From: a virus
Lineage: Duplodnaviria > Heunggongvirae > Uroviricota > Caudoviricetes > Straboviridae
Reading direction: 5' to 3' (one strand)
Virus record (IMG/VR): IMGVR_UViG_638275429_000001
Span: 1 to 23,739 of that record
Length of the DNA stretch: 23,739 bases
Made by a program: the position numbers and the translations under genes. The notes under the pieces are model-generated. The model saw only the letters and a program-made list of their open reading frames with translations. It ran no database searches and had not been told where the DNA came from. Positions 3,874 to 22,717 of this stretch are shown one piece after another (positions within the stretch are counted from its first letter, which is position 1; every line of letters begins with the position of its first letter).

Positions 3874-4125
3874 TTATTTCACTTCATCGAAAAAGTGGAA
3901 CATTTCTTCATCATCGAATGTGATACCGCCGCCACCTTCTTCTTCCGGCAATTCGATCTTTTTACCGTTAGCGTCGACCAGCATGTAACCAACCAACTTG
4001 TTGCTGTCATATTTTGCCCAAAATTCGTCTGGCATGTGCTTCGAGAAACTCTCATTGTACCACTCGCTTTCGGCGAATTTTTTACGATGCTCTTCAGATT
4101 TGAAGCGAATACGTTTGATTGTCAT
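3874..4125 (-). CDS. Hypothetical 83-aa protein, GoF/ComC-alpha-like family
   Basis: RIRFKSEEHRKKF...N...EEMFHFFDEV; SD GAGG; first gene after an early promoter. Confidence 0.8.
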   Translation of the reverse strand: MTIKRIRFKSEEHRKKFAESEWYNESFSKHMPDEFWAKYDSNKLVGYMLVDANGKKIELPEEEGGGGITFDDEEMFHFFDEVK

Positions 4126-4148
4126 GATTAACCCTCTGCTTTAAGTAT

Positions 4149-4188
4149 TTGATGGATTCATTCTATACATTTCGATGGTGGTGTAAAC
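4149..4188 (-). promoter_or_regulatory. Early promoter of terminator-promoter cassette
   Basis: A/T-rich UP tract, GTTTAC-17-TAGAAT, CATCAA 5 nt downstream of the -10. Confidence 0.85.
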
Positions 4189-4225
4189 TGTTTTGTGAAA
4201 AAGATTTCAATAAAAACAACAAAGG
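4182..4225. repeat. Direct repeat copy 1 (terminator tail + UP element + -35)
   Basis: tgtaaactgttttgtgaaaaagatttcaataaaaacaacaaagg, identical to 10006-10048 except for one A. Confidence 0.9.
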
Positions 4226-4245: not shown

Positions 4246-6072
4246 TCATTGAGACATCCATTCTTTACGGAGAGCTGCGTCATCACCCAGCAGCATCTCG
4301 AACAACTCTTCCCAATCATCACCAAGGTCGACGATATCATAGTTGGGGTTGTTGACCACATCAGAGTATTCATGCTCTCGAAGTGAACCCAGACCTTTGA
4401 TGTATCGCAAATCCCAACCTTTGTAATCCTTCTTTTCTTTTTCGAATTCAGTTAGTGTGTAGAACCATTTGGTGTTCTTACCTTTGTTGAGGATAACAAC
4501 TGGCGTTTTGACGAATCGAACCGAACCTTCATCAAACAGCTTTGGCCATCGAGCGAAGAAAGCAAGCAAACAGGGGTAAATAGAACCTTGACCATCCGGG
4601 TCAGCATCCGTCATGATTGCAATGTTCTTATACTTGCGCTGGCTGATGTCGTCTGGGTTCGCCAAATCGAGACCTGTGATAGCGCAAATATCCGACAATT
4701 CATTGTTCTTCAGAACATCCGAACCTTTCATACCCCACGTGTTCATGACCTTGCCGCGCAATGCGTAACCACCATGGAGGTTTTCGTCTTTGACCTTCAA
4801 TAGGTAACCAATCGCCGATTCACCTTCAGTCAGGAACAATGTGGTCTCAATATCGTTCCGGCCCCATTCACCAGCTTTAATGTGCTTAGCGCAGTTGGTT
4901 TTTGCTGCTGCTTTCTGGGCTTTTGTCATTGCAGCTTTTTCGGCTGCCAGATGTCGTGCAAGAGCGGCTTCAATGATCGGTTGCAAGATTGCATCAGTGT
5001 TCATTATCTGTTTGGATAATTTCTTAAAGTCAAGGTCAAAGTGCGATTTGACTTCACCTGCCGGATTAGTGAGGCGCTCTTTGGTTTGCGAATCGAATCG
5101 GAGGTTTGACATTCCGCGAACGACTACAACCATTGTTAAGCATTCTTTAACACGAGCTTTGCTGATTTCGATCTTATGCTTTTTCTTGATCGCTGGCATA
5201 AGTTCTTCAGAAATCCCATCAACCAGATAATCGATATGCGAACCACCGTTCTTGATGTTCAGACCGTTAACATAACTAACCTGACGGAATCCTTCAGGAG
5301 AATTACAGATTGCAATACTGAATCTATCACTTTCGACGATGAGCGACTCATCACCAAACATCTTTGCATAATCAGCAAATTTCATCGACGCGATTTGGCC
5401 GTTGATTGTGAATTTGATTTGCGGGAATACGACAGACAATGCGGTAATACGGTCGGAAATGATATCGATTATTTGTTGGTCGATTGTTCGGCCTTCAAAG
5501 TGCTTTTCATCAGGGATGAAATATACCGACGTTCCTTTGATTTTACCTGGCTTTGTTTCCCAATCAATATTACTCGCACCTTCAGAGCAAGTGACGGTGA
5601 GAAAATTCTTGCCATCGCAAGTTTCTCCAATAAATTTCTTCGAGAAGAAGTTGGTGAGAGATGAACCAACACCATTCATACCCATAGACACACGATTGGT
5701 GTCGTCGAAGTTTGAACCAGCCATCGTCTGAGTCCATGCCGCGACAGGTTTTGGCATCTCGCCATCTGGTGTTTCGACCATTGACTGTGGAATGCCGCGA
5801 CCGTTATCTACTACGGTTACAGAACCCTCAAGCAAATCAAAGCGAATATCAATCTTATTTGCAAATTTAAAATCAGTACGAATGCCTTCGTCAACAGAGT
5901 TGTCAATAATTTCATCGATGATTTTTACCAGACCTGGCACATAAGAAACTGATTGGAATTTGCCGAAAAGGAATCGCTCATGCGGTTCGTAAGCAACTGA
6001 ACCAACATACATATTCGGACGGAGGATTACATGCTCTCGTGGTGTTAGTACTTTGAATTCATCAGACATCAT
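4246..6072 (-). CDS. 39: Type II DNA topoisomerase large subunit, fused gp39+gp60 (GHKL ATPase + Toprim)
   Basis: HVILRPNMYVGS, EIIDNSVDE, DNGRGIP, GMNGVGS ATPase motifs; TEGESA, LRGKVMN, MTDADPDG Toprim motifs in one uninterrupted 608-aa ORF. Confidence 0.96.
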   Translation of the reverse strand: MMSDEFKVLTPREHVILRPNMYVGSVAYEPHERFLFGKFQSVSYVPGLVKIIDEIIDNSVDEGIRTDFKFANKIDIRFDLLEGSVTVVDNGRGIPQSMVETPDGEMPKPVAAWTQTMAGSNFDDTNRVSMGMNGVGSSLTNFFSKKFIGETCDGKNFLTVTCSEGASNIDWETKPGKIKGTSVYFIPDEKHFEGRTIDQQIIDIISDRITALSVVFPQIKFTINGQIASMKFADYAKMFGDESLIVESDRFSIAICNSPEGFRQVSYVNGLNIKNGGSHIDYLVDGISEELMPAIKKKHKIEISKARVKECLTMVVVVRGMSNLRFDSQTKERLTNPAGEVKSHFDLDFKKLSKQIMNTDAILQPIIEAALARHLAAEKAAMTKAQKAAAKTNCAKHIKAGEWGRNDIETTLFLTEGESAIGYLLKVKDENLHGGYALRGKVMNTWGMKGSDVLKNNELSDICAITGLDLANPDDISQRKYKNIAIMTDADPDGQGSIYPCLLAFFARWPKLFDEGSVRFVKTPVVILNKGKNTKWFYTLTEFEKEKKDYKGWDLRYIKGLGSLREHEYSDVVNNPNYDIVDLGDDWEELFEMLLGDDAALRKEWMSQ

Positions 6073-6089
6073 ATTTCCTCATAATAATG

Positions 6090-6127
6090 GGTAGTGACAT
6101 TATATCACTACCTGTCATACAGTTAAC
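6090..6127 (-). promoter_or_regulatory. Promoter for gene 39+60 with palindromic -10 region
   Basis: GTTAAC-17-TATAAT; TATAAT sits in the loop of a perfect 8-bp repeat GGTAGTGA/TCACTACC; SD GAGG follows. Confidence 0.7.
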
Positions 6128-6129
6128 AA

Positions 6130-7299
6130 TTACTGCTTTGCGCACTCAAGAATATGCATGATTTTTATCGTGATGTCGTAAAAATCCGATTCAACCCATC
6201 CACGAGTAGTCATTGCCGGAGAACCGATCCGGATGCCTGAAGTTTCAACAGGTGATCGGGTGTCGTTGGGAAGCATATTTTTGTTAACGATTATGCCTTC
6301 TTTTTCCAACAGCTGTTCAGCTTCTCGACCAGTCAAGCCGAAGCTCTCGTAGGTGTTTAACAAGACCTGGTGGTTCTCGGTAAAGCCAACTAGCTTATGA
6401 CCAGCAGCGTCAAAAGTCTCATACATTATGGATGCATTATGGGCCACTTGAATCATGTAATCGACATAGTCTTCGCGGAGAGCTTCACCAAAACAAACTG
6501 CTTTCGCTGCGATAACATGAAGAAGCGGGCCGCCTTGAATACCCGGGAAGATAGCAGAATTTACTTTCTTGGCGATATCAGCATCGTTAGTAAGAATGAG
6601 GCCACCACGAGGGCCGCGCAAAGTTTTATGAGTTGTAGTAGTAACAACGTCGGCACCCCATTTGAGTGGATTAGCGTGAAGACGAGCAGCAACAAAGCCA
6701 GCAAAATGGGCCATATCGACCATCAATTTGGCTCCAATTGAATGAGCTGCATCAGCGATTTTCGCATAGGTGGCTTCATTGATTCGGCCAACATAAGCTG
6801 AATACCCGATTACGACAAGCTTGAGGTCCGGGATGGTTCGAATCTGCTCAACCACTTGGTTAATGTTGATCGTACCATCGCTGAATACTCCATAATGATG
6901 GAAATCGTATATCTTGCCCGAAGCATTCGCTTTGTGCCCGTGAGTGAGATGGCCGCCGCAGTCCAAGGACATAGCGAGAACCGAATCACCCGGCTTCAGG
7001 AGTGCTTGGTAAACTGCCTGGTTTGCTTGTGAACCGGAATGAGGTTGAACGTTTGCGAAATTGCAACTAAACAGTTCTTTAGCACGCTCAATTGCCAGGT
7101 TCTCGATTTCATCGGCTTTTACGCAGCCGCCATAATACCGTTTGCCCGGATATCCCTCAGCATACTTGTTGGTAAAAATAGAACCCTGTGCTTTCATAAC
7201 ATCGTCTGACACATAGTTTTCGGACGCAATCAAGCAAACTTCGCAGTATTGACGCATTGCTTCATCTTCGATAATAGATTGCACAACTTTATCTTGCAT
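6130..7299 (-). CDS. glyA: Serine hydroxymethyltransferase (PLP-dependent)
   Basis: Hallmark motifs intact: LIASEN, NKYAEGYPGKRYYGGC, NVQPHSGSQAN, GGHLTHG, DMAH, TTTTHKTLRGPRGG (PLP lysine), FPGIQGGPL, NKN, SGIRIGSPAMTTRG; SD AAGGA. Confidence 0.97.
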   Translation of the reverse strand: MQDKVVQSIIEDEAMRQYCEVCLIASENYVSDDVMKAQGSIFTNKYAEGYPGKRYYGGCVKADEIENLAIERAKELFSCNFANVQPHSGSQANQAVYQALLKPGDSVLAMSLDCGGHLTHGHKANASGKIYDFHHYGVFSDGTININQVVEQIRTIPDLKLVVIGYSAYVGRINEATYAKIADAAHSIGAKLMVDMAHFAGFVAARLHANPLKWGADVVTTTTHKTLRGPRGGLILTNDADIAKKVNSAIFPGIQGGPLLHVIAAKAVCFGEALREDYVDYMIQVAHNASIMYETFDAAGHKLVGFTENHQVLLNTYESFGLTGREAEQLLEKEGIIVNKNMLPNDTRSPVETSGIRIGSPAMTTRGWVESDFYDITIKIMHILECAKQ

Positions 7300-7300
7300 T

Positions 7301-7717
7301 TTAATATCCTTTCCAGAAATTTACAGGTTGTTTTCGCTCTAATTGGGAATCATGAGCAATGGTTGAAAGCATATCACGGACGCCCACATCGCTTAATCCG
7401 TCATATTGTAACTCGCGTATTCTTCTGAAACGTGCGTAAAGCTCAGCAAATTTAATGCCTTTGCAACGATCAACGTTAATCATCATCAATGCGTCATTCG
7501 GCACCCATTTGCGTCTCAGGACATAGGTTCTCCGATCAGGAGATTCTTGCGAGCTATGCCAATTAATGAAAACATCATGCGATCCGGCCCACTCGCGAAG
7601 ATCGTCGAACTCACGTGCTTTTGATTTCCAATATGAACTTTTCGCTTGCGTTAAAATGGTAAGCAAGATGATAAAAAGAATCACTATTGCGAATATGTTG
7701 ACCGTGATCACGTTCAT
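7301..7717 (-). CDS. Hypothetical membrane-anchored protein (138 aa)
   Basis: N-terminal hydrophobic helix IFAIVILFIILLTIL followed by basic residues; paralog of 7719-8096. Confidence 0.75.
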   Translation of the reverse strand: MNVITVNIFAIVILFIILLTILTQAKSSYWKSKAREFDDLREWAGSHDVFINWHSSQESPDRRTYVLRRKWVPNDALMMINVDRCKGIKFAELYARFRRIRELQYDGLSDVGVRDMLSTIAHDSQLERKQPVNFWKGY

Positions 7718-7718
7718 G

Positions 7719-8096
7719 TCATTTGTCCCAGATAGTTTTTTCTATTTTGGCTTGAGATAGGTAAAGAATTGACATAAGATTGCCGGTTTGGTCGAAATCT
7801 GGATTCGCGATATCATCTTTGCGAATCTGCTCTAACATTTTATAGGCTTTACGAAAATTGATGCCTTTGCATTCGGAAAATATTGCATTGTCTCCACCGG
7901 GCATGAAAAATACAACCTTTTCAAAAGCACCCACTACGCCATTCTTGAAATTCATGGATATACCATATTTCGCAAGCCATGTGTTAATCTTTGCTTGCTC
8001 ATTTCGGGCTTTTTTCCGCCAACGGCTATCCCATGTTGAAAAGCAGCAGGCTATAAGCCCCAGCACTAGCCCAGCGATAAAAATTATTTGGAACAT
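7719..8096 (-). CDS. Hypothetical membrane-anchored protein (about 125 aa)
   Basis: N-terminal helix IIFIAGLVLGLIACCF; start chosen at MFQII; paralog of 7301-7717. Confidence 0.75.
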   Translation of the reverse strand: MFQIIFIAGLVLGLIACCFSTWDSRWRKKARNEQAKINTWLAKYGISMNFKNGVVGAFEKVVFFMPGGDNAIFSECKGINFRKAYKMLEQIRKDDIANPDFDQTGNLMSILYLSQAKIEKTIWDK

Positions 8097-8629
8097 GCTT
8101 TTTCCACCCATTTTTCAGCTTTCATATTCAGTTGAAGATTCAGCTCTTTTACGATGAGGTCAACAATTTGGCTTTTGCCCAACCCGGGGTTATCTTCAGA
8201 GTATTGAAGATAAAGCATGTCCATCACGCAGTTGATGACATCTGCAGCTTCACCGACTGGTCGCTCATCACAACGCTCAGGCTGGTTGATCGATTTAGCG
8301 AATTCGCCAACTTCCTCAACCAACTTGCCCATCACAAAGCCCATATTGCGTGTCGGGACAACAGCGCTGGCTGTAAAGGTGCTCGACAAATCGATCGAAA
8401 CGTTCTTTATAACTTCGTCGAAAAACACGTTGAGGTCTCCTTCGATTTTGAATGACATTGGAGTTACTGCATGGTAGATTCCATCGATTTGGCGATAGCT
8501 CTGATGCTCAATGGTATTGATCGCTTCGATCAATTCCGAACGATTTTGCCGGCGCCCTATCCGGTTTATGGATTTTTTGTTGATGAACGATATCAAACCT
8601 TCGCGGTCATTACACTTCAAACGAATCAT
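8084..8629 (-). CDS. MazG-like NTP pyrophosphohydrolase with N-terminal extra domain
   Basis: C-terminal half has KLVEEVGEFAKSI...GEAADV (EExxE...ExxD of all-alpha NTP-PPases); N-terminal 73 aa end in VFFDEV like the GoF-like family. Confidence 0.75.
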   Translation of the reverse strand: MIRLKCNDREGLISFINKKSINRIGRRQNRSELIEAINTIEHQSYRQIDGIYHAVTPMSFKIEGDLNVFFDEVIKNVSIDLSSTFTASAVVPTRNMGFVMGKLVEEVGEFAKSINQPERCDERPVGEAADVINCVMDMLYLQYSEDNPGLGKSQIVDLIVKELNLQLNMKAEKWVEKACSK

Positions 8630-8865
8630 ACATTTACCTCAAACTGTTCTTCGAAAAATTTCTGTTCGTTGACTGGAATACCGATGGCATAACCCAGGAA
8701 TTCAGCATTAGTTTTCCAGCCGCCGTCTTCCATAACTTCGATTACACGGAGATCTCCTTCTTTGGATTTGCCCTCGAGTATGCTTGCCCACAGGCGTTGA
8801 CCTTGGGTTTTGCAGTATTCTGCGTGGTATTCTGGCAGAACATTGAGTTTCATCTGGATTTTCAT
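8626..8865 (-). CDS. Hypothetical 79-aa protein (ends EQKFFEE; probable GoF-like family)
   Basis: Start moved to the ATGA overlap with 8862-9080, SD GAGG; C-terminus shares 16 identical nt with the neighbour. Confidence 0.7.
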   Translation of the reverse strand: MKIQMKLNVLPEYHAEYCKTQGQRLWASILEGKSKEGDLRVIEVMEDGGWKTNAEFLGYAIGIPVNEQKFFEEQFEVNV

Positions 8866-9080
8866 TGATTGACCTCGAAAAATTTCTGTTGATCGCGACA
8901 AATTTGGGCTTTGCCGAGTGGCCCGTAAACATTAAGAGTCCACATACCGCGATCGCGTTGCACGATTTGCAATTCGCGAGTTTTTGTGAAATCTACGATT
9001 GAGCGCGCCAGCTTATAGTCCACAATGTTTTTGCGGCAGTGGTCGATAAAACCTTTTTCGTCAATGAGTCTGATTTTCAT
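8862..9080 (-). CDS. Hypothetical 72-aa protein (MKIRL...QQKFFEV; probable GoF-like family)
   Basis: ATGA-coupled to both neighbours; SD GGAG. Confidence 0.7.
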   Translation of the reverse strand: MKIRLIDEKGFIDHCRKNIVDYKLARSIVDFTKTRELQIVQRDRGMWTLNVYGPLGKAQICRDQQKFFEVNQ

Positions 9081-9406
9081 TTCAGTTCTCCATAGCTCAG
9101 TTTGATGAGTATGCGTTGGCCACGTTTCATCGACACATCGACTATTCCGCGAAGCCCGATAAGTTCGCTTTGATAGCGCGTCGCGGTCGGAAAGTTCTTT
9201 AAAATGACCTTGCGGATCTTTTCGTTATACTCAGCAATTTCAGTTTGCGCTAGTTTGTAAGCTTTGGTTTTGAAAAGCTTTCCAAAAGTGTCCTGGTTGT
9301 TGGCGCCGACGGCATTCATGCTGGTGTAAAGTTCGTAGAGTTCCTTCTCAACGCCATGACTTTTCTCTTCCGCCAACAAAAGCCTGTAATTAGGCCGGCA
9401 CATCAC
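9077..9406 (-). CDS. Hypothetical 109-aa protein
   Basis: Translationally coupled ORF in the early operon. Confidence 0.65.
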   Translation of the reverse strand: MMCRPNYRLLLAEEKSHGVEKELYELYTSMNAVGANNQDTFGKLFKTKAYKLAQTEIAEYNEKIRKVILKNFPTATRYQSELIGLRGIVDVSMKRGQRILIKLSYGELK

Positions 9407-9624
9407 AGACGACCTTTGAGATTTTCGTAAACACCTTCAACCAACTTGTACTCGCTGCCGTCTTTGGTGATTACCCGCTCCAATACTGCGATGCGAGTGT
9501 TGCCGTCGAAGACATAAAGAACAGTTGTGTAAACGAGGTGCTCTTCGTGGCTTTTCTCCACAATGTTGAACTGGTTGGTGAACATAACATCCAGGAAAAA
9601 ATCTTTAGAGATACGCATTTTCAT
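9403..9624 (-). CDS. Hypothetical 73-aa protein
   Basis: SD GGAG directly after an early promoter. Confidence 0.7.
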   Translation of the reverse strand: MKMRISKDFFLDVMFTNQFNIVEKSHEEHLVYTTVLYVFDGNTRIAVLERVITKDGSEYKLVEGVYENLKGRL

Positions 9625-9642
9625 TACTCCGTGTTTATCGAT

Positions 9643-9683
9643 TTGATGTGATTATCTTAACATGAGTTGAAATCAATGTAAAC
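9643..9683 (-). promoter_or_regulatory. Early promoter
   Basis: GTTTAC-18-TAAGAT with TG extension; CATCAA 5 nt downstream. Confidence 0.85.
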
Positions 9684-9956
9684 TCATTTTTTCAAAACAT
9701 TTTCGTCCAACCATTTTTGAACTTGAGTATTGCAATCTTTGTCATAGCTTATGCAATAGTCGTAACGAGGATTTTTCGATTTTGAGTCATACACTTTATC
9801 AAAGAAGACATAACCGACTTCAGGGATATCGACACTGAAATAAACTGACGTCATTCGGCCATCAGTTTCGACAATCGGACCTTCAGCCAAAGGATGTTGA
9901 GTAATCACTTCGTAAACAACTTCTTTGATAGGCAAAGTCCGCAAATGCTTTTTCAT
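9684..9956 (-). CDS. Hypothetical 90-aa early protein
   Basis: Start reassigned to the ATG after GGAGG (MKKHLRT...). Confidence 0.7.
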   Translation of the reverse strand: MKKHLRTLPIKEVVYEVITQHPLAEGPIVETDGRMTSVYFSVDIPEVGYVFFDKVYDSKSKNPRYDYCISYDKDCNTQVQKWLDENVLKK

Positions 9957-9971
9957 TATGACCTCCATGAT

Positions 9972-10012
9972 TTGATGGGACAATTTTATACCGATAAACG
10001 GACAATGTAAAC
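9972..10012 (-). promoter_or_regulatory. Early promoter of terminator-promoter cassette
   Basis: GTTTAC-18-TAAAAT; CATCAA 5 nt downstream; same UP tract as the 4149-4188 promoter. Confidence 0.85.
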
Positions 10013-10048
10013 TGTTTTGTGAAAAGATTTCAATAAAAACAACAAAGG
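10006..10048. repeat. Direct repeat copy 2 (terminator tail + UP element + -35)
   Basis: Near-identical to 4182-4225. Confidence 0.9.
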
Positions 10049-10061
10049 GCCCGAAGGCCCT
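10035..10061 (-). terminator. Intrinsic terminator
   Basis: AGGGCC-TTCG-GGCCCT then TTGTTGTTTTT. Confidence 0.88.
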
Positions 10062-10067
10062 CAGAGT

Positions 10068-10544
10068 TTACAGGATGAAGTCAGCTTCTTCCAAATATGA
10101 TTCATTGAGACCACCCTCGATGTGCACCAAGTGATGAAGGAGAACTTCGCTGTGATCATACATGCACTTAGCGTCGTCGATAACTACCCAACGGCGAATT
10201 CCATGATCGGCCGCATGCTTTAGTACACCTGTGCCACGACCCTGGCCACCACCTGTGTTATAAGCTTCGGAATGATATGGAAGCTCCAGGAAGTCACATA
10301 TCATTTTGCCTGTGTCATTCAACACGACCCATGAGCTAACGATTACAACTTTTGCATTATTGCGAATAAGCCATTCGCGCAGAATGCTTAGACGGTGGTT
10401 TGAGACGAAATCACCATGGTTGTATGGCGAGGTCCGGAAAAGATGCGATGCCCTGTCAGTTCTCCAAATTTCATGGTCACTAACTGTATTGAGAACACCA
10501 TCAATATCGAGATAAACTACAACTTCGTTTACTTGCTTATCCAT
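10068..10544 (-). CDS. HAD-superfamily phosphatase-like protein (HAD_SAK_2-like)
   Basis: Motif I YLDIDGVLN, motif II IVSSW, motif IV VVIDD; SD GAGG. Confidence 0.8.
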   Translation of the reverse strand: MDKQVNEVVVYLDIDGVLNTVSDHEIWRTDRASHLFRTSPYNHGDFVSNHRLSILREWLIRNNAKVVIVSSWVVLNDTGKMICDFLELPYHSEAYNTGGGQGRGTGVLKHAADHGIRRWVVIDDAKCMYDHSEVLLHHLVHIEGGLNESYLEEADFIL

Positions 10545-14194: not shown

Positions 14195-14338
14195 TTACAG
14201 CTTTCCTTGCCAAGGGTGGCATCCTGGCATAACGTCGCTGTTGTAAGGCTTTTTGTACCATGGGGTTTGTTGCTCTTTCTCTTTTACACGCTTCATACGA
14301 AGGGCGAACATCGTGTTATCAGACTGTTTATTTGTCAT
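14195..14338 (-). CDS. Hypothetical 47-aa basic protein not in ORF track (MTNKQSDN...WQGKL)
   Basis: TAATG overlap with the gene 56 stop. Confidence 0.55.
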   Translation of the reverse strand: MTNKQSDNTMFALRMKRVKEKEQQTPWYKKPYNSDVMPGCHPWQGKL

Positions 14339-14856
14339 TAGTAGCCTCGCTCTTGACGGTCAAAGTTTTCTGCATTTTTCAGGTAATACAGTTTGAAGAT
14401 TTCGTTGCCATCCATGCCCATCGCGATAAATTTGTTCAGAACAAAGTGCATTTGGTCGATCAATTCGAATTTTGCTTCAAGCTGATCTTCAGCGGATAAA
14501 TCAGAAAACAGGCGATCACGATATTCGCCATGCTCAGCACGCCACGGTTTCCAAATAGCATTTGGCTTGGGATTGCTCATACCACCAAGCGAAGTATAGT
14601 GCTCGCGGACTTCGTCGGCAATATAGTCGTCTTGCTTTTGGCACCATTCCAGAATTTCGCCGCATGTTTTCAGGGTACGCGGATCTTTGTTGTATTTTGG
14701 ATGACGTTCAGCCAGCTCGATTTGCAATTGGCGCTGCATGTCGATCATTCGATCAAGCGGGTTATGATGAACACTCAAACAGCCTTCGAGAGCATTTTGA
14801 GCTTTATGCAGATTGTCGATAAGTTGTGAGCATTCATTAAATTGAGGTGTAGTCAT
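14338..14856 (-). CDS. 56: dCTPase/dUTPase gp56
   Basis: FNEC..LI, M.DMQR.LQ..LA, I.DE.RE..TSLG.MS, WK.W, EDQLE.KFELID..HF, EIFKLYYLKNAENF.RQ.RGY match recalled T4 gp56; SD AGGAG. Confidence 0.95.
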   Translation of the reverse strand: MTTPQFNECSQLIDNLHKAQNALEGCLSVHHNPLDRMIDMQRQLQIELAERHPKYNKDPRTLKTCGEILEWCQKQDDYIADEVREHYTSLGGMSNPKPNAIWKPWRAEHGEYRDRLFSDLSAEDQLEAKFELIDQMHFVLNKFIAMGMDGNEIFKLYYLKNAENFDRQERGY

Positions 14857-19290: not shown

Positions 19291-19986
19291 TTACTCAATG
19301 GAACCAGTTGCGATATATTTTTCGATCATTGGGAAATGGCGTTCATACACGTGGATCGAATCAACACACCAATAAATGTCACCTTTCTCAACCATAACTT
19401 CGCGAGATTGCAATTTATCAACCAAACGCTTGAGCACATAGTCTTGCCATGCCCAGTCATTACGATAACCGAAAATCGCGTCGTTTGACCTCATATGGAC
19501 AACAGCGTTCAGTTTGCCATCGCGAATTTGGTATTGGACGTTGTTGGTGCACATAAAATCAGACATGCCGTTTGCTTTATAATCCTCATGCATAGTTGGA
19601 CGAGTGTAAATCATATTCGCCCGCCGGGTATTCGGATCACTGGCCAGGTGCATGAGAACGTTGGCAAACTGTGAACCATTCTCATCACTAAGAATCGCCC
19701 ATCCATAATTTGAGTTAATACGCCCTTCAGAATCCGATACGGCTTCCCAAATGACTGGAGTTTTACCAGGAATATCGTGAACATATCGGGATTGGCTCAG
19801 GTACCATGCGAGCTCTCGTTCAATATAATCATTGTTGAGCTTGCCGAAGATCAGAGGTTCATCGGCTTTGAACATGACCGGCGCAATTTCGATGGTTTTA
19901 ACGCCCGTTTTGTCGGTTACAAATTCGCCTGCGGCGAAGCGTTGAGCTAGAATGTCACGGATATTTTGGGTGTTCATATACAGCAT
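19291..19986 (-). CDS. 42: dCMP hydroxymethyltransferase gp42
   Basis: DKTGVKTIEI, FG.LN.DYI.REL.WY, INSNYGWAI, IYTRP, DFMCTN (catalytic Cys), HMRSND..FG.RND.AWQ (cytosine-specifying Asp) match recalled T4 gp42. Confidence 0.95.
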   Translation of the reverse strand: MLYMNTQNIRDILAQRFAAGEFVTDKTGVKTIEIAPVMFKADEPLIFGKLNNDYIERELAWYLSQSRYVHDIPGKTPVIWEAVSDSEGRINSNYGWAILSDENGSQFANVLMHLASDPNTRRANMIYTRPTMHEDYKANGMSDFMCTNNVQYQIRDGKLNAVVHMRSNDAIFGYRNDWAWQDYVLKRLVDKLQSREVMVEKGDIYWCVDSIHVYERHFPMIEKYIATGSIE

Positions 19987-19995
19987 AGAATGTCC

Positions 19996-21171
19996 TTAGA
20001 TGTCAAACATGTCAAAAAGATTATTGCGGAATTCGTAATCGGTTTTTGTGGCTTCACATATTGAAGAAAGCGGTTTGACGAAGGTCTTGTCAAACAGTTT
20101 ATTGATGTCAAGATATTTTAAAACGTCGGCTTCAACAGCTGGTGGAATGGGTGTTCCTGACGGCCAAGCAAAACATGCTTCATTAAATGGATTCCGATCA
20201 CGTAGCGGTAAAACCATTACCTTTTCGCCTTCGGATATCATCGGGATAGCAGTATCAGTTTTCGCGATACGGTTGTAAGCCAAAACACCTTTAACGTGAT
20301 ATGGAGTACCTTTGATCGGGAAACCAAGTGCATCACCGTTTTTACCGATATTGTTCGCAGACGATACAGCAGCAACATCCTGATATGGGATATTTTTGAA
20401 CTCATCTTTGAACTCTTTGAAGTAATCTTGCAAAGATGATTCACCTTCTTGCAAAAGACGACGGATAGATTCCTTCAAAGACTTTTGGCATGCGAGAGGT
20501 GTAGATGACCGTTGGGTTTCAAGACCCATGATTTTAAGGTGAGGTTCGGCATAACGCGTACCTTCCATGTCGTAAACGTTAAGAGCATAACGTTTTTTAC
20601 CTGTCCAGAACCCGCCGATACCATCAGAACCAAGAGGTGCACCAAAAATAGCTTCACGGTCCATAAGCAATAGGTGATGATCATGGTTCATGTACTCTTC
20701 GAGTTCTTTGTATGAATCGTCAATGAACGGTTCAAGCTTTTTGCTACCGAGATTATCGAGGAAATCGATCAAATGGTTTGTATCGCGGAACTTGTCGATA
20801 CCAACACGATTAACTACAGCTTCCATATTCAGATAAACGGAATCTGTGTCGATATAGCAAACATAGTCAACACCAGTGGTTTTAACCAGCTCGTTGATAT
20901 ATTCGTTCAGTTTGCGTTCAATCCAGCGAATCGCCAATTGCCCGTAGGTTGTGATAGCTTCGGCATTTCGAAGGTCAAAATAACGGAACCAGTTATTACC
21001 GAGAGCTCCATAAAGAGAGTTGATCAAAATCTTTCGGTTTAATTGGTTTGTATTTCGTTTCTGTTCTTCTTTTTCGCAACGTGCGATCATCTGTTGCAAT
21101 TCATCAGTTGACAAAGTGTTCAGATATGTGAGTTCTTCTTCGTTAAAATCACGAAATAATTCGAGTTCCAT
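19996..21171 (-). CDS. 43B: DNA polymerase gp43B (C-terminal part: fingers, palm, thumb, clamp-binding tail)
   Basis: RKILINSLYG (motif B), YIDTDS (motif C), KKRYAL, C-terminal LFDMF; ATG with AGAGGA SD. Confidence 0.93.
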   Translation of the reverse strand: MELELFRDFNEEELTYLNTLSTDELQQMIARCEKEEQKRNTNQLNRKILINSLYGALGNNWFRYFDLRNAEAITTYGQLAIRWIERKLNEYINELVKTTGVDYVCYIDTDSVYLNMEAVVNRVGIDKFRDTNHLIDFLDNLGSKKLEPFIDDSYKELEEYMNHDHHLLLMDREAIFGAPLGSDGIGGFWTGKKRYALNVYDMEGTRYAEPHLKIMGLETQRSSTPLACQKSLKESIRRLLQEGESSLQDYFKEFKDEFKNIPYQDVAAVSSANNIGKNGDALGFPIKGTPYHVKGVLAYNRIAKTDTAIPMISEGEKVMVLPLRDRNPFNEACFAWPSGTPIPPAVEADVLKYLDINKLFDKTFVKPLSSICEATKTDYEFRNNLFDMFDI

Positions 21172-21184
21172 ATTATTTCCTCTT

Positions 21185-21224
21185 TTGATGGGGCTATTAT
21201 AACATAGCCCCGGAGTTGCATCAA
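21185..21224 (-). promoter_or_regulatory. Promoter for 43B in the 49-bp 43A-43B gap
   Basis: TTGATG-17-TATAAT with TG extension, CATCAA 5 nt downstream; -10 inside GGGGCTAT/ATAGCCCC. Confidence 0.7.
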
Positions 21225-22717
21225 TGATCGAGCTTAACGCCGCGGGATGCCAGTATTTTCTTGATGGCTTCCTGATTTCGGATGGCTGCAAGCATCATTT
21301 TCTTCTCAGACTTACGCTGGAGGAATACTTTCTCAGTTTCATTTGGAAGAACGCCAACTACACCTTTCTTGTACATCATGCCGTTTGGAGCACAGCTGAA
21401 TTGATCGGATGGTCGTGGAGCAACCTTATTGATATAGTCTTCAAGGCGTGCAGGAGAAAACATGCCAGCAATCATCTCGGGACTGATATTCAACAGACGG
21501 AGAATAGATGGATACAGTGATGTCAAGTCGAAGCTCAAACCATAACGGTAGCCACCGGGTACAGGTTCTTTAACATATGCGCCTGGGAAACTCTGCTTCG
21601 GGCTTGCCTTCATCGCTGGAATAACAACATTGCTTTCAACAAGAGAGTTGAAGATGATTGAATCCCATACTTTGATCGTGCCAAGAACATCATCGAAACG
21701 AATTTTTGCATAATAGGACAAAGACAGAATCAGGTCAATGAAGCAACGACGACCATCAATAAGCAGGATAATATCAGTATCTCGAACGCAGTAGTCCACA
21801 TAGCGTTGATGATCTGCTTTTCTGAATTTGTTGATCGGCCCTTCATAATCCAGTTTATCCGCCTTAACTTCACGGTAACCCACGTTTCCAAGCTTGTAGT
21901 CAGGCATCGGGGTGAAACTGAACTTCTTGAACACATCCATGTAATCCATGAGCGCAATGCCGTGAATTTTGTAGATGATTTTTTCACCATACAAGTTGGT
22001 GATGGTTTTTGAGGTAATTTTGCCATATGGACTCAACTGATTCGCAGCTTTTTCACCAAGGATGTTGGTTATCCGCGTTATGATGTATGGAATATCGAAG
22101 CCTTCCGAGTTCCAGCCGAAAACCAGGTCAGGGGTGTTTGCTTTCCACAGTTGAATGTAGTTCAAAAGGAGATCGACTTCGTCTTCGAATGGCATATAAA
22201 CGACGTTGTCAAGAATATACTTTTCGAGAACTGACTTTTTCGGGTCCCAATGGCCAACATCTTTGACTAAATCGAAGATGTAATAGGTCTTTTTGCCATT
22301 ATGCAAACGAACATGAGATATCATGTCGATTTCATATTTGGCATACTTTGGTTCTGGGAATTCGGGAGCAGTGACTTCGATATCCACAACGTCAATAACG
22401 ACATCGTCTCGGTCAAAATCAATTACACCTCGGTAGGTGTCAGAGATATAAGATATGCCATAGTCATCCATACCCATGGCGTCCATACCAACTTCTTCCA
22501 TCCGTTTAATCCACTGCTTGGCTTCCCAGATGTTTTCATGTTTTTTCGGCACACAGAATCTGCCGTAGATATCTTTATGCTTGGTTTGAACGCCTGGCGC
22601 AGCGTGTTGGAAGAGTGTTGGCTGGTATGCGACTTTTCGCGTTTGACGTTTGCCGTTATCGACAAAACGTTCCATAATATTGTTGCCAATGATTTCGATA
22701 TTGGTGTAATGACGCAT
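21221..22717 (-). CDS. 43A: DNA polymerase gp43A (N-terminal, 3'-5' exonuclease, palm motif A, first fingers helix)
   Basis: Exo I DIEVT, Exo II GWNSEGFDIPY, Exo III YCVRD, motif A SFDLTSLYPS; SD AAGGA. Confidence 0.95.
   Translation of the reverse strand: MRHYTNIEIIGNNIMERFVDNGKRQTRKVAYQPTLFQHAAPGVQTKHKDIYGRFCVPKKHENIWEAKQWIKRMEEVGMDAMGMDDYGISYISDTYRGVIDFDRDDVVIDVVDIEVTAPEFPEPKYAKYEIDMISHVRLHNGKKTYYIFDLVKDVGHWDPKKSVLEKYILDNVVYMPFEDEVDLLLNYIQLWKANTPDLVFGWNSEGFDIPYIITRITNILGEKAANQLSPYGKITSKTITNLYGEKIIYKIHGIALMDYMDVFKKFSFTPMPDYKLGNVGYREVKADKLDYEGPINKFRKADHQRYVDYCVRDTDIILLIDGRRCFIDLILSLSYYAKIRFDDVLGTIKVWDSIIFNSLVESNVVIPAMKASPKQSFPGAYVKEPVPGGYRYGLSFDLTSLYPSILRLLNISPEMIAGMFSPARLEDYINKVAPRPSDQFSCAPNGMMYKKGVVGVLPNETEKVFLQRKSEKKMMLAAIRNQEAIKKILASRGVKLDH

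Follow-up and report, generated by a model that had tools for sequence, protein, structure and literature searches.

A serine hydroxymethyltransferase gene in a 44RR2.8t-type Aeromonas phage as a candidate recharging step for two folate-dependent pyrimidine enzymes

The folate loop shared by serine hydroxymethyltransferase (SHMT) and dCMP hydroxymethylase is textbook chemistry, and SHMT is also the main provider, in cells, of glycine and of the one-carbon units that go into purines. Two enzymes encoded by T4-type phages consume 5,10-methylene-THF, namely thymidylate synthase (td) and dCMP hydroxymethylase (gp42), and the SHMT loop is established for both (PMC6400193; PMC6294363). For the T4 enzyme, it was stated in 2019 that dCMP hydroxymethylase releases THF and that SHMT reloads it (PMC6400193), which is the chemistry that the original prediction for this locus had assumed. 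Its further premise that T4 has no SHMT of its own is also borne out, as none is found in any T4-type coliphage among the phage records. The SHMT gene itself is no new discovery: it has been on record since 2006 as 44RRORF008c, with a Pfam SHMT match (E 9.8e-180; Table 3 of Nolan et al., 2006, Virol J 3:30; PMC1524935). Its orthologs in phages 31, L9-6, Riv-10 and AS4 are annotated either as “serine hydroxymethyltransferase” or as “methyltransferase”. No functional discussion of 44RRORF008c and no experimental work on any phage SHMT were found in the literature searched, and the words “serine” and “folate” do not occur in the 2010 review of T4-related genomes. The gene is therefore already known and has a textbook rationale, while the mosaicism of the 44RR allele and the distribution of the gene were worked out in the present analysis.

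The window (the whole stretch of DNA analysed, 23,739 nt) is the left end of a T4-like genome of 173,591 bp, and its DNA is 95–96% identical to that of Aeromonas phages 31 and L9-6 of the genus Biquartavirus. It is Aeromonas phage 44RR2.8t or a near copy of it, as indicated by the arrangement of its genes and by the NP_932xxx cross-references that the phage 31 record carries. The order of genes on the minus strand is rIIA, gene 39, SHMT, small ORFs, cef, dexA, dda, gene 56, denV, 61, 41, 40, 42, split 43B/43A, regA and 62. The split DNA polymerase (window 19996–22717; 43A, 498 aa; 43B, 431 aa) is a known feature of this Aeromonas phage group. The features on which the following account depends are listed here in window coordinates.

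6000–7200: mosaic patch, in which the SHMT DNA is 66–86% identical to phage 31 and the flanks are 96–99% identical
6099–6126, minus strand: sigma-70-like promoter for gene 39, immediately beyond the SHMT stop codon (TTAACT-16-TATAAT with TG)
6130–7299, minus strand: SHMT gene (44RRORF008c), 389 aa, ATG start; Pfam, NCBIfam and structure matches
7301–7717, minus strand: ORF009c, a 138-aa ORF that terminates 1 nt short of the SHMT ATG
7307–7314, minus strand: Shine-Dalgarno-like GGAAAGGA, with an AAGGA core that ends 7 nt before the SHMT ATG
8084–8629: MazG-like pyrophosphatase, 181 aa (PHROG 1247), two genes upstream of SHMT
9654–10033, minus strand: sigma-70-like promoter cluster from a consensus scan, with matches at 10033–10004, 10011–9983, 9983–9955 and 9682–9654
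14338–14856, minus strand: gene 56, dCTPase/dUTPase ortholog, 172 aa (PHROG 173, E 1.2e-35; 58% identical to T2 gp56)
19291–19986, minus strand: gene 42, dCMP hydroxymethylase ortholog, 231 aa (E 5.7e-80 to T4 1B5D)

The ORF at 6130–7299 matches the Pfam family PF00464 with an E value of 4.8e-129 and 430.9 bits (cut-off 27), covering positions 4–396 of the 399 in the profile, and the NCBIfam model NF000586 (GlyA) with 513.3 bits (cut-off 335). It shares 52–55% identity with solved bacterial SHMTs (E 6e-125 to 7V3D and 5e-117 to E. coli 1DFO). Its AlphaFold model (pLDDT 87.5, pTM 0.88) has the predicted fold of a fold-type I PLP enzyme and superimposes on both 7V3D and 1DFO with a TM score of 0.85; the only low-confidence loops, residues 47–53 and 253–256, both complete the active site of the partner subunit. 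Across an alignment of 30 sequences, the PLP lysine K225 (T-T-H-K), H224 and T222/T223 are invariant and kept in the phage protein, as are the PLP ring and phosphate ligands D195, H198, S167, H117 and G89, and also R231, while the flanking serines of the phosphate loop, S88 and S90, are at least 90% conserved and likewise kept. The folate and substrate residues E48, Y46, Y55/Y56, N341 and R357 are also invariant. The reference residues are those of E. coli SHMT, where we take D200, H203, S175, H126 and S97-G98-S99 to be the ligands of the PLP ring and phosphate, and E57, Y55, Y64/Y65, N347 and R363 to be the folate and substrate residues. The C-terminus of the phage protein is 22–27 residues shorter than that of bacterial GlyA, as in six of the six phage clusters of its clade, and the stretch that it lacks holds no catalytic residue. 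The gene had been described as a full-length glyA with all PLP and folate motifs intact; every motif residue is indeed in place, but the C-terminal 22–27 residues are absent. The ORF thus appears to encode a functional phage SHMT, whose catalytic activity is predicted from its sequence.

The same residues bear on the proposal that the enzyme is non-canonical, acting either as a THF-independent aldolase or transaldolase or in a further, amino-acid-derived modification of hydroxymethylcytosine (hmC). The phage has no recognisable glucosyltransferase genes, its SHMT clade is distinct and C-terminally shortened with best cellular homologs only 58–60% identical, and SHMT-family transaldolases that act on nucleosides occur in antibiotic pathways, all of which would suit such an activity. 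It is nevertheless highly improbable, given that the folate and serine-carboxylate residues (E48, Y55/56, N341, R357) are invariant, that the fluorothreonine transaldolase model reaches only 84 of the 650 bits it requires whereas the SHMT model is far above its cut-off, and that the gene is kept in Aeromonas phage Asfd_1, which has no gene 42.

The Shine-Dalgarno-like sequence ahead of the ATG agrees with the earlier statement that the gene has its own ribosome-binding site. As the stop codon of ORF009c lies 1 nt before the SHMT ATG, SHMT sits within a co-directional block that seems to run from the sigma-70-like promoters at about 9.65–10.03 kb, and this cluster, assigned from its consensus matches, likely provides the early starts of the block down to SHMT. 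The promoter-like site at 6126–6099 lies beyond the SHMT stop codon and serves gene 39 rather than SHMT. No MotA-box (middle) or late promoters were detected by motif scan in 6000–10200, and SHMT would accordingly be placed among the early genes by its context. ORF009c is co-transcribed with SHMT, yet it is no obligate partner, since it is missing from a variant found in the Logan metagenomes (L177; contig ERR13716015_600, 860–2604). In that variant, SHMT directly follows the 181-aa MazG-like gene, and the two small ORFs of window 7301–8111 are absent.

Several genes were considered as partners of SHMT and set aside. The 138-aa and 130-aa ORFs upstream of SHMT have no significant family match, and the small neighbouring ORFs were rejected as folate or nucleotide partners on that ground and because the 138-aa ORF is dispensable in the variant phage. 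The 181-aa MazG-like gene was rejected as a nucleotide partner, as it is not a gp56 paralog and has no meaningful solved relative. Beyond the window, a 507-aa sodium:solute symporter is encoded on the minus strand (G000:C1:162882–164402); it is YidK-like (NF007790, 266 bits, below the equivalog cut-off), and no link to SHMT as a serine importer was found.

Genes 56 and 42 lie in the window where they had been reported, and gp42 retains the catalytic Cys and the Asp described for it. In the T4 enzyme, Cys148 is catalytic, Asp179 specifies cytosine (the position is Asn in thymidylate synthases) and Glu60 completes the triad (PMC6400193). The corresponding C146, D177 and E58 of the window's gp42 are all kept and invariant, so that the Glu can be added to the two residues named before. 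The genome carries the full hmC gene set, comprising gp42, gp56, gp1 (dNMP kinase), alc and denA; gene 56 orthologs as such are widespread (1404 phage records). A Pfam search of the genome for T4 alpha- and beta-glucosyltransferases gave no match, but its controls matched nowhere either, and the absence of glucosyltransferase genes from 44RR is taken here from the review of T4-related genomes by Petrov et al. (2010; PMC2993671). The presence of hmC in 44RR DNA is itself inferred from genes only (PMC2771037, PMC2993671).

Elsewhere in the genome, td (138194–139030; 328.7 bits) and frd (139030–139581; 63.7 bits) lie side by side as open frames without stops. The genes cd, tk, nrdA and nrdD are also present, while thyX is absent from this phage genome. 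The phage thus encodes all three enzymes of the thymidylate cycle (td, frd and SHMT), and with td and frd in the same genome SHMT would close the classical thymidylate cycle as well as the gp42 loop. With two methylene-THF consumers in one genome, it would belong to two cycles at once, one with td and frd and the other with gp42.

Our preferred reading, with a probability of about 0.65, is that the phage SHMT recharges 5,10-methylene-THF in general, for td as well as for gp42. Expressed early, the enzyme would convert THF and serine into 5,10-methylene-THF and glycine in the infected cell and so raise the one-carbon recharging capacity available to the whole pyrimidine programme. Of the two consumers, the thymidylate synthase td would release DHF, which frd would then reduce, and gp42 would release THF directly. 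Supposing that hmC replaces all C and that T is made entirely de novo, one methylene unit would be spent on each pyrimidine of the 173.6-kb genome. A genome copy would then need 97,418 units for its T and 76,173 for its C, and T would represent 56% of the phage's one-carbon demand. Which of these consumers is the main beneficiary is something that we infer rather than observe. The position of the gene gives no direct link to either of them in this genome, since SHMT lies about 132 kb from td/frd and 12 kb from gene 42, adjacent to neither; gene 56 is 7 kb away. Many genes and promoter-like sites separate SHMT from genes 56 and 42, with which it shares no operon or neighbourhood.

The original prediction had gone further, joining glyA, gene 42 and gene 56 into a module for hmC synthesis. 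As a rival to a general recharger, this makes SHMT the dedicated partner of gp42, in a two-enzyme cycle selected mainly for hmC DNA that counters restriction and CRISPR. The chemistry speaks for it, in that the THF released by gp42 can be reloaded by SHMT without DHFR, and so do the complete hmC toolkit and the lack of a glucosyltransferase. The distribution of the gene is less favourable. In 50,697 phage records, gp42 orthologs (threshold E ≤1e-30) were found in 767 and a credible SHMT in 16, with both in merely 14; another 29 SHMT records were short or doubtful, about 50% identical, and were left out of the 16. All 16 credible records are Biquartavirus Aeromonas phages. Their sisters, the Tulanevirus Aeromonas phages (25, Aes508, phiAS4, AS-gz and others), have a gp42 that is 80% identical but no SHMT, and the interval from gene 39 to MazG in Aes508 holds neither SHMT nor the 138-aa ORF. 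The same pattern appears in metagenomic genomes, where only one of the 27 gp42-bearing IMG/VR contigs of at least 25 kb has SHMT, as does none of the five that are complete.

Aeromonas phage Asfd_1 (MK577502.1; L005, L007) provides the converse case. This Biquartavirus keeps SHMT, gp56 and td, but gene 42 is missing; only 53 bp (L007:7063–7115) separate its genes 40 and 43B, in place of a 769-bp stretch with gene 42 in its relative UP87. Its SHMT is under selection despite the loss of gene 42. In addition, its alc has diverged strongly (39% identity), a gene for a T4 Dam-like methylase is present, and Asfd_1 may have abandoned hmC.

Environmental viruses extend this comparison. SHMT occurs in 93 viral stretches in IMG/VR, at 48–58% identity, many of them within T4-like replication modules (gp41, gp43, regA, gp44, gp45, gp46). 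Among the 37 SHMT-bearing contigs of at least 15 kb, which are mostly fragments, a true ThyA is found in seven, ThyX in 11, and a divergent thymidylate synthase homolog with Asp at the cytosine-specifying position in three. Across 80 viral SHMT loci, ThyX lies 170–840 bp from SHMT in seven and ThyA 39 bp away in one, while none has a gp42-like gene within 10 kb. Four SHMT-bearing IMG/VR genomes are complete. The T4-like G013 (165 kb) has SHMT and ThyX only, with no gp42-like gene, and in G033 (177 kb) SHMT is accompanied by neither ThyA nor ThyX. The other two, G009 (L019, L089) and G022 (L055, L090), are of about 120–130 kb with terminal repeats, and their SHMT lies 170–190 bp from ThyX. Both also carry an Asp-type thymidylate synthase homolog, which in G022 is located within a 617-aa frame with a long N-terminal extension. 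The single gp42-bearing contig with SHMT is the T4-like G048, whose gp42 is 55% identical to that of the window and whose SHMT, of another lineage (49% identity), is beside nrdA/nrdB.

SHMT and an Asp-type (dCMP-type) homolog therefore meet in three to four independent lineages (Biquartavirus, G009/G022, G014 and G048), including two of the four complete SHMT-bearing IMG/VR genomes, and this co-occurrence can be counted in favour of a dedicated hmC role. It is also expected of a general recharger, because phages in which every pyrimidine carries a one-carbon demand stand to gain most from recharging. The hmC module as originally drawn accordingly retains its chemistry, its full toolkit and these co-occurrences, but not its dedication. 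A check of glyA against gene 42 had been proposed for it, and the two are distributed independently, shared in so few gene-42 records and with Asfd_1 and G013 having SHMT without gene 42. As SHMT is rare among gene-42 phages, persists without gene 42, mostly neighbours thymidylate synthase elsewhere and is accompanied here by td and frd, it does not appear to be dedicated to hmC, and we consider that reading improbable.

A role outside pyrimidine synthesis, with SHMT as an auxiliary metabolic gene for amino-acid or purine supply (glycine, formyl-THF precursors or a serine drain), is about equally improbable. In cells, glycine and the one-carbon units used in purine synthesis come mainly from SHMT, G033 has SHMT without ThyA or ThyX, and in G048 the gene adjoins nrdA/nrdB, which are general dNTP-supply genes. 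Yet the recurring neighbour of viral SHMT is thymidylate synthase, and the published Pfam survey of the phage's novel ORFs lists no purine-synthesis enzyme or other folate-interconversion enzyme (PMC1524935 Table 3). For the general recharger, the size of the benefit is a separate matter: a GlyA is already supplied by the host, and since T4 and about 750 further gene-42 phages do without a phage-encoded one, the gain may be slight or confined to certain conditions.

The history of the gene is that of a phage gene rather than a recent acquisition. The 44RR and phage 31 alleles differ at about 20% of residues with a dN/dS of 0.16, and SHMT is under purifying selection. The sharp boundaries of the divergent patch relative to phage 31 point to allelic replacement by recombination. 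A second, short divergent patch relative to phage 31 is found at 3901–4200 (68.5% identity). The nearest allele is that of L177, an unrelated Logan metagenome contig, with 92% protein identity and the same place beside gene 39. In a FastTree phylogeny, the Aeromonas-phage alleles form one well-supported monophyletic clade, across the whole of which the gene is kept. Recent capture from an Aeromonas host was rejected, as the best cellular homologs are 51–60% identical and scattered over many phyla. A single origin for all viral SHMTs is likewise not supported: a FastTree phylogeny, with narrow bacterial sampling and weak deep branches, separates the Aeromonas-phage clade from a group of 79 IMG/VR sequences. 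Purifying selection, mosaicism, a single clade and distant cellular homologs together indicate an old, selected and recombining phage gene.

A bolder version of the recharging role would make SHMT a physical member of the T4-type dNTP-synthesis complex, handing methylene-THF directly to gp42 and td, so that the phage would no longer depend on host folates for its pyrimidines. We regard this as speculative and rather unlikely, though with slightly better prospects than a dedicated hmC cycle. If true, it would account for the repeated presence of SHMT in phages in which all cytosines are modified, and replication might be shielded when host one-carbon metabolism is shut down or antifolates are present.

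If the SHMT is active, the phage encodes every folate-dependent step at pyrimidine C5 (SHMT, thymidylate synthase, DHFR and dCMP hydroxymethylase) and offers a compact natural system for asking how far one-carbon supply limits phage DNA synthesis and base modification. Natural controls are available in the many environmental T4-like phages with SHMT beside ThyX or ThyA, in Asfd_1, which has SHMT but no gene 42, and in the sister phages, which have gene 42 but no SHMT.

Compared with bacterial GlyA (E. coli 1DFO, E. faecium 7V3D and G. stearothermophilus 1KKJ), the phage SHMT is alike in fold and in its catalytic, PLP and folate residues, and the bacterial enzymes are 22–27 residues longer at the C-terminus. 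All three enzymes of the classical ThyA-DHFR-SHMT cycle are phage-encoded here, but they are dispersed, and gp42 is an extra consumer. The two-enzyme ThyX-SHMT cycle of ThyX organisms has its counterpart in environmental T4-like phages, where SHMT adjoins ThyX or ThyA. The hmC pathway of T4 is represented in this phage by orthologs of gp56, gp42, gp1, alc and denA, with the same loop chemistry. In T4, host GlyA reloads THF and hmC is glucosylated, whereas 44RR has its own SHMT and no recognisable glucosyltransferase, and its hmC is predicted from its genes. The T4 scheme is unchanged in kind, with the phage SHMT as an added copy of a step that the host provides.
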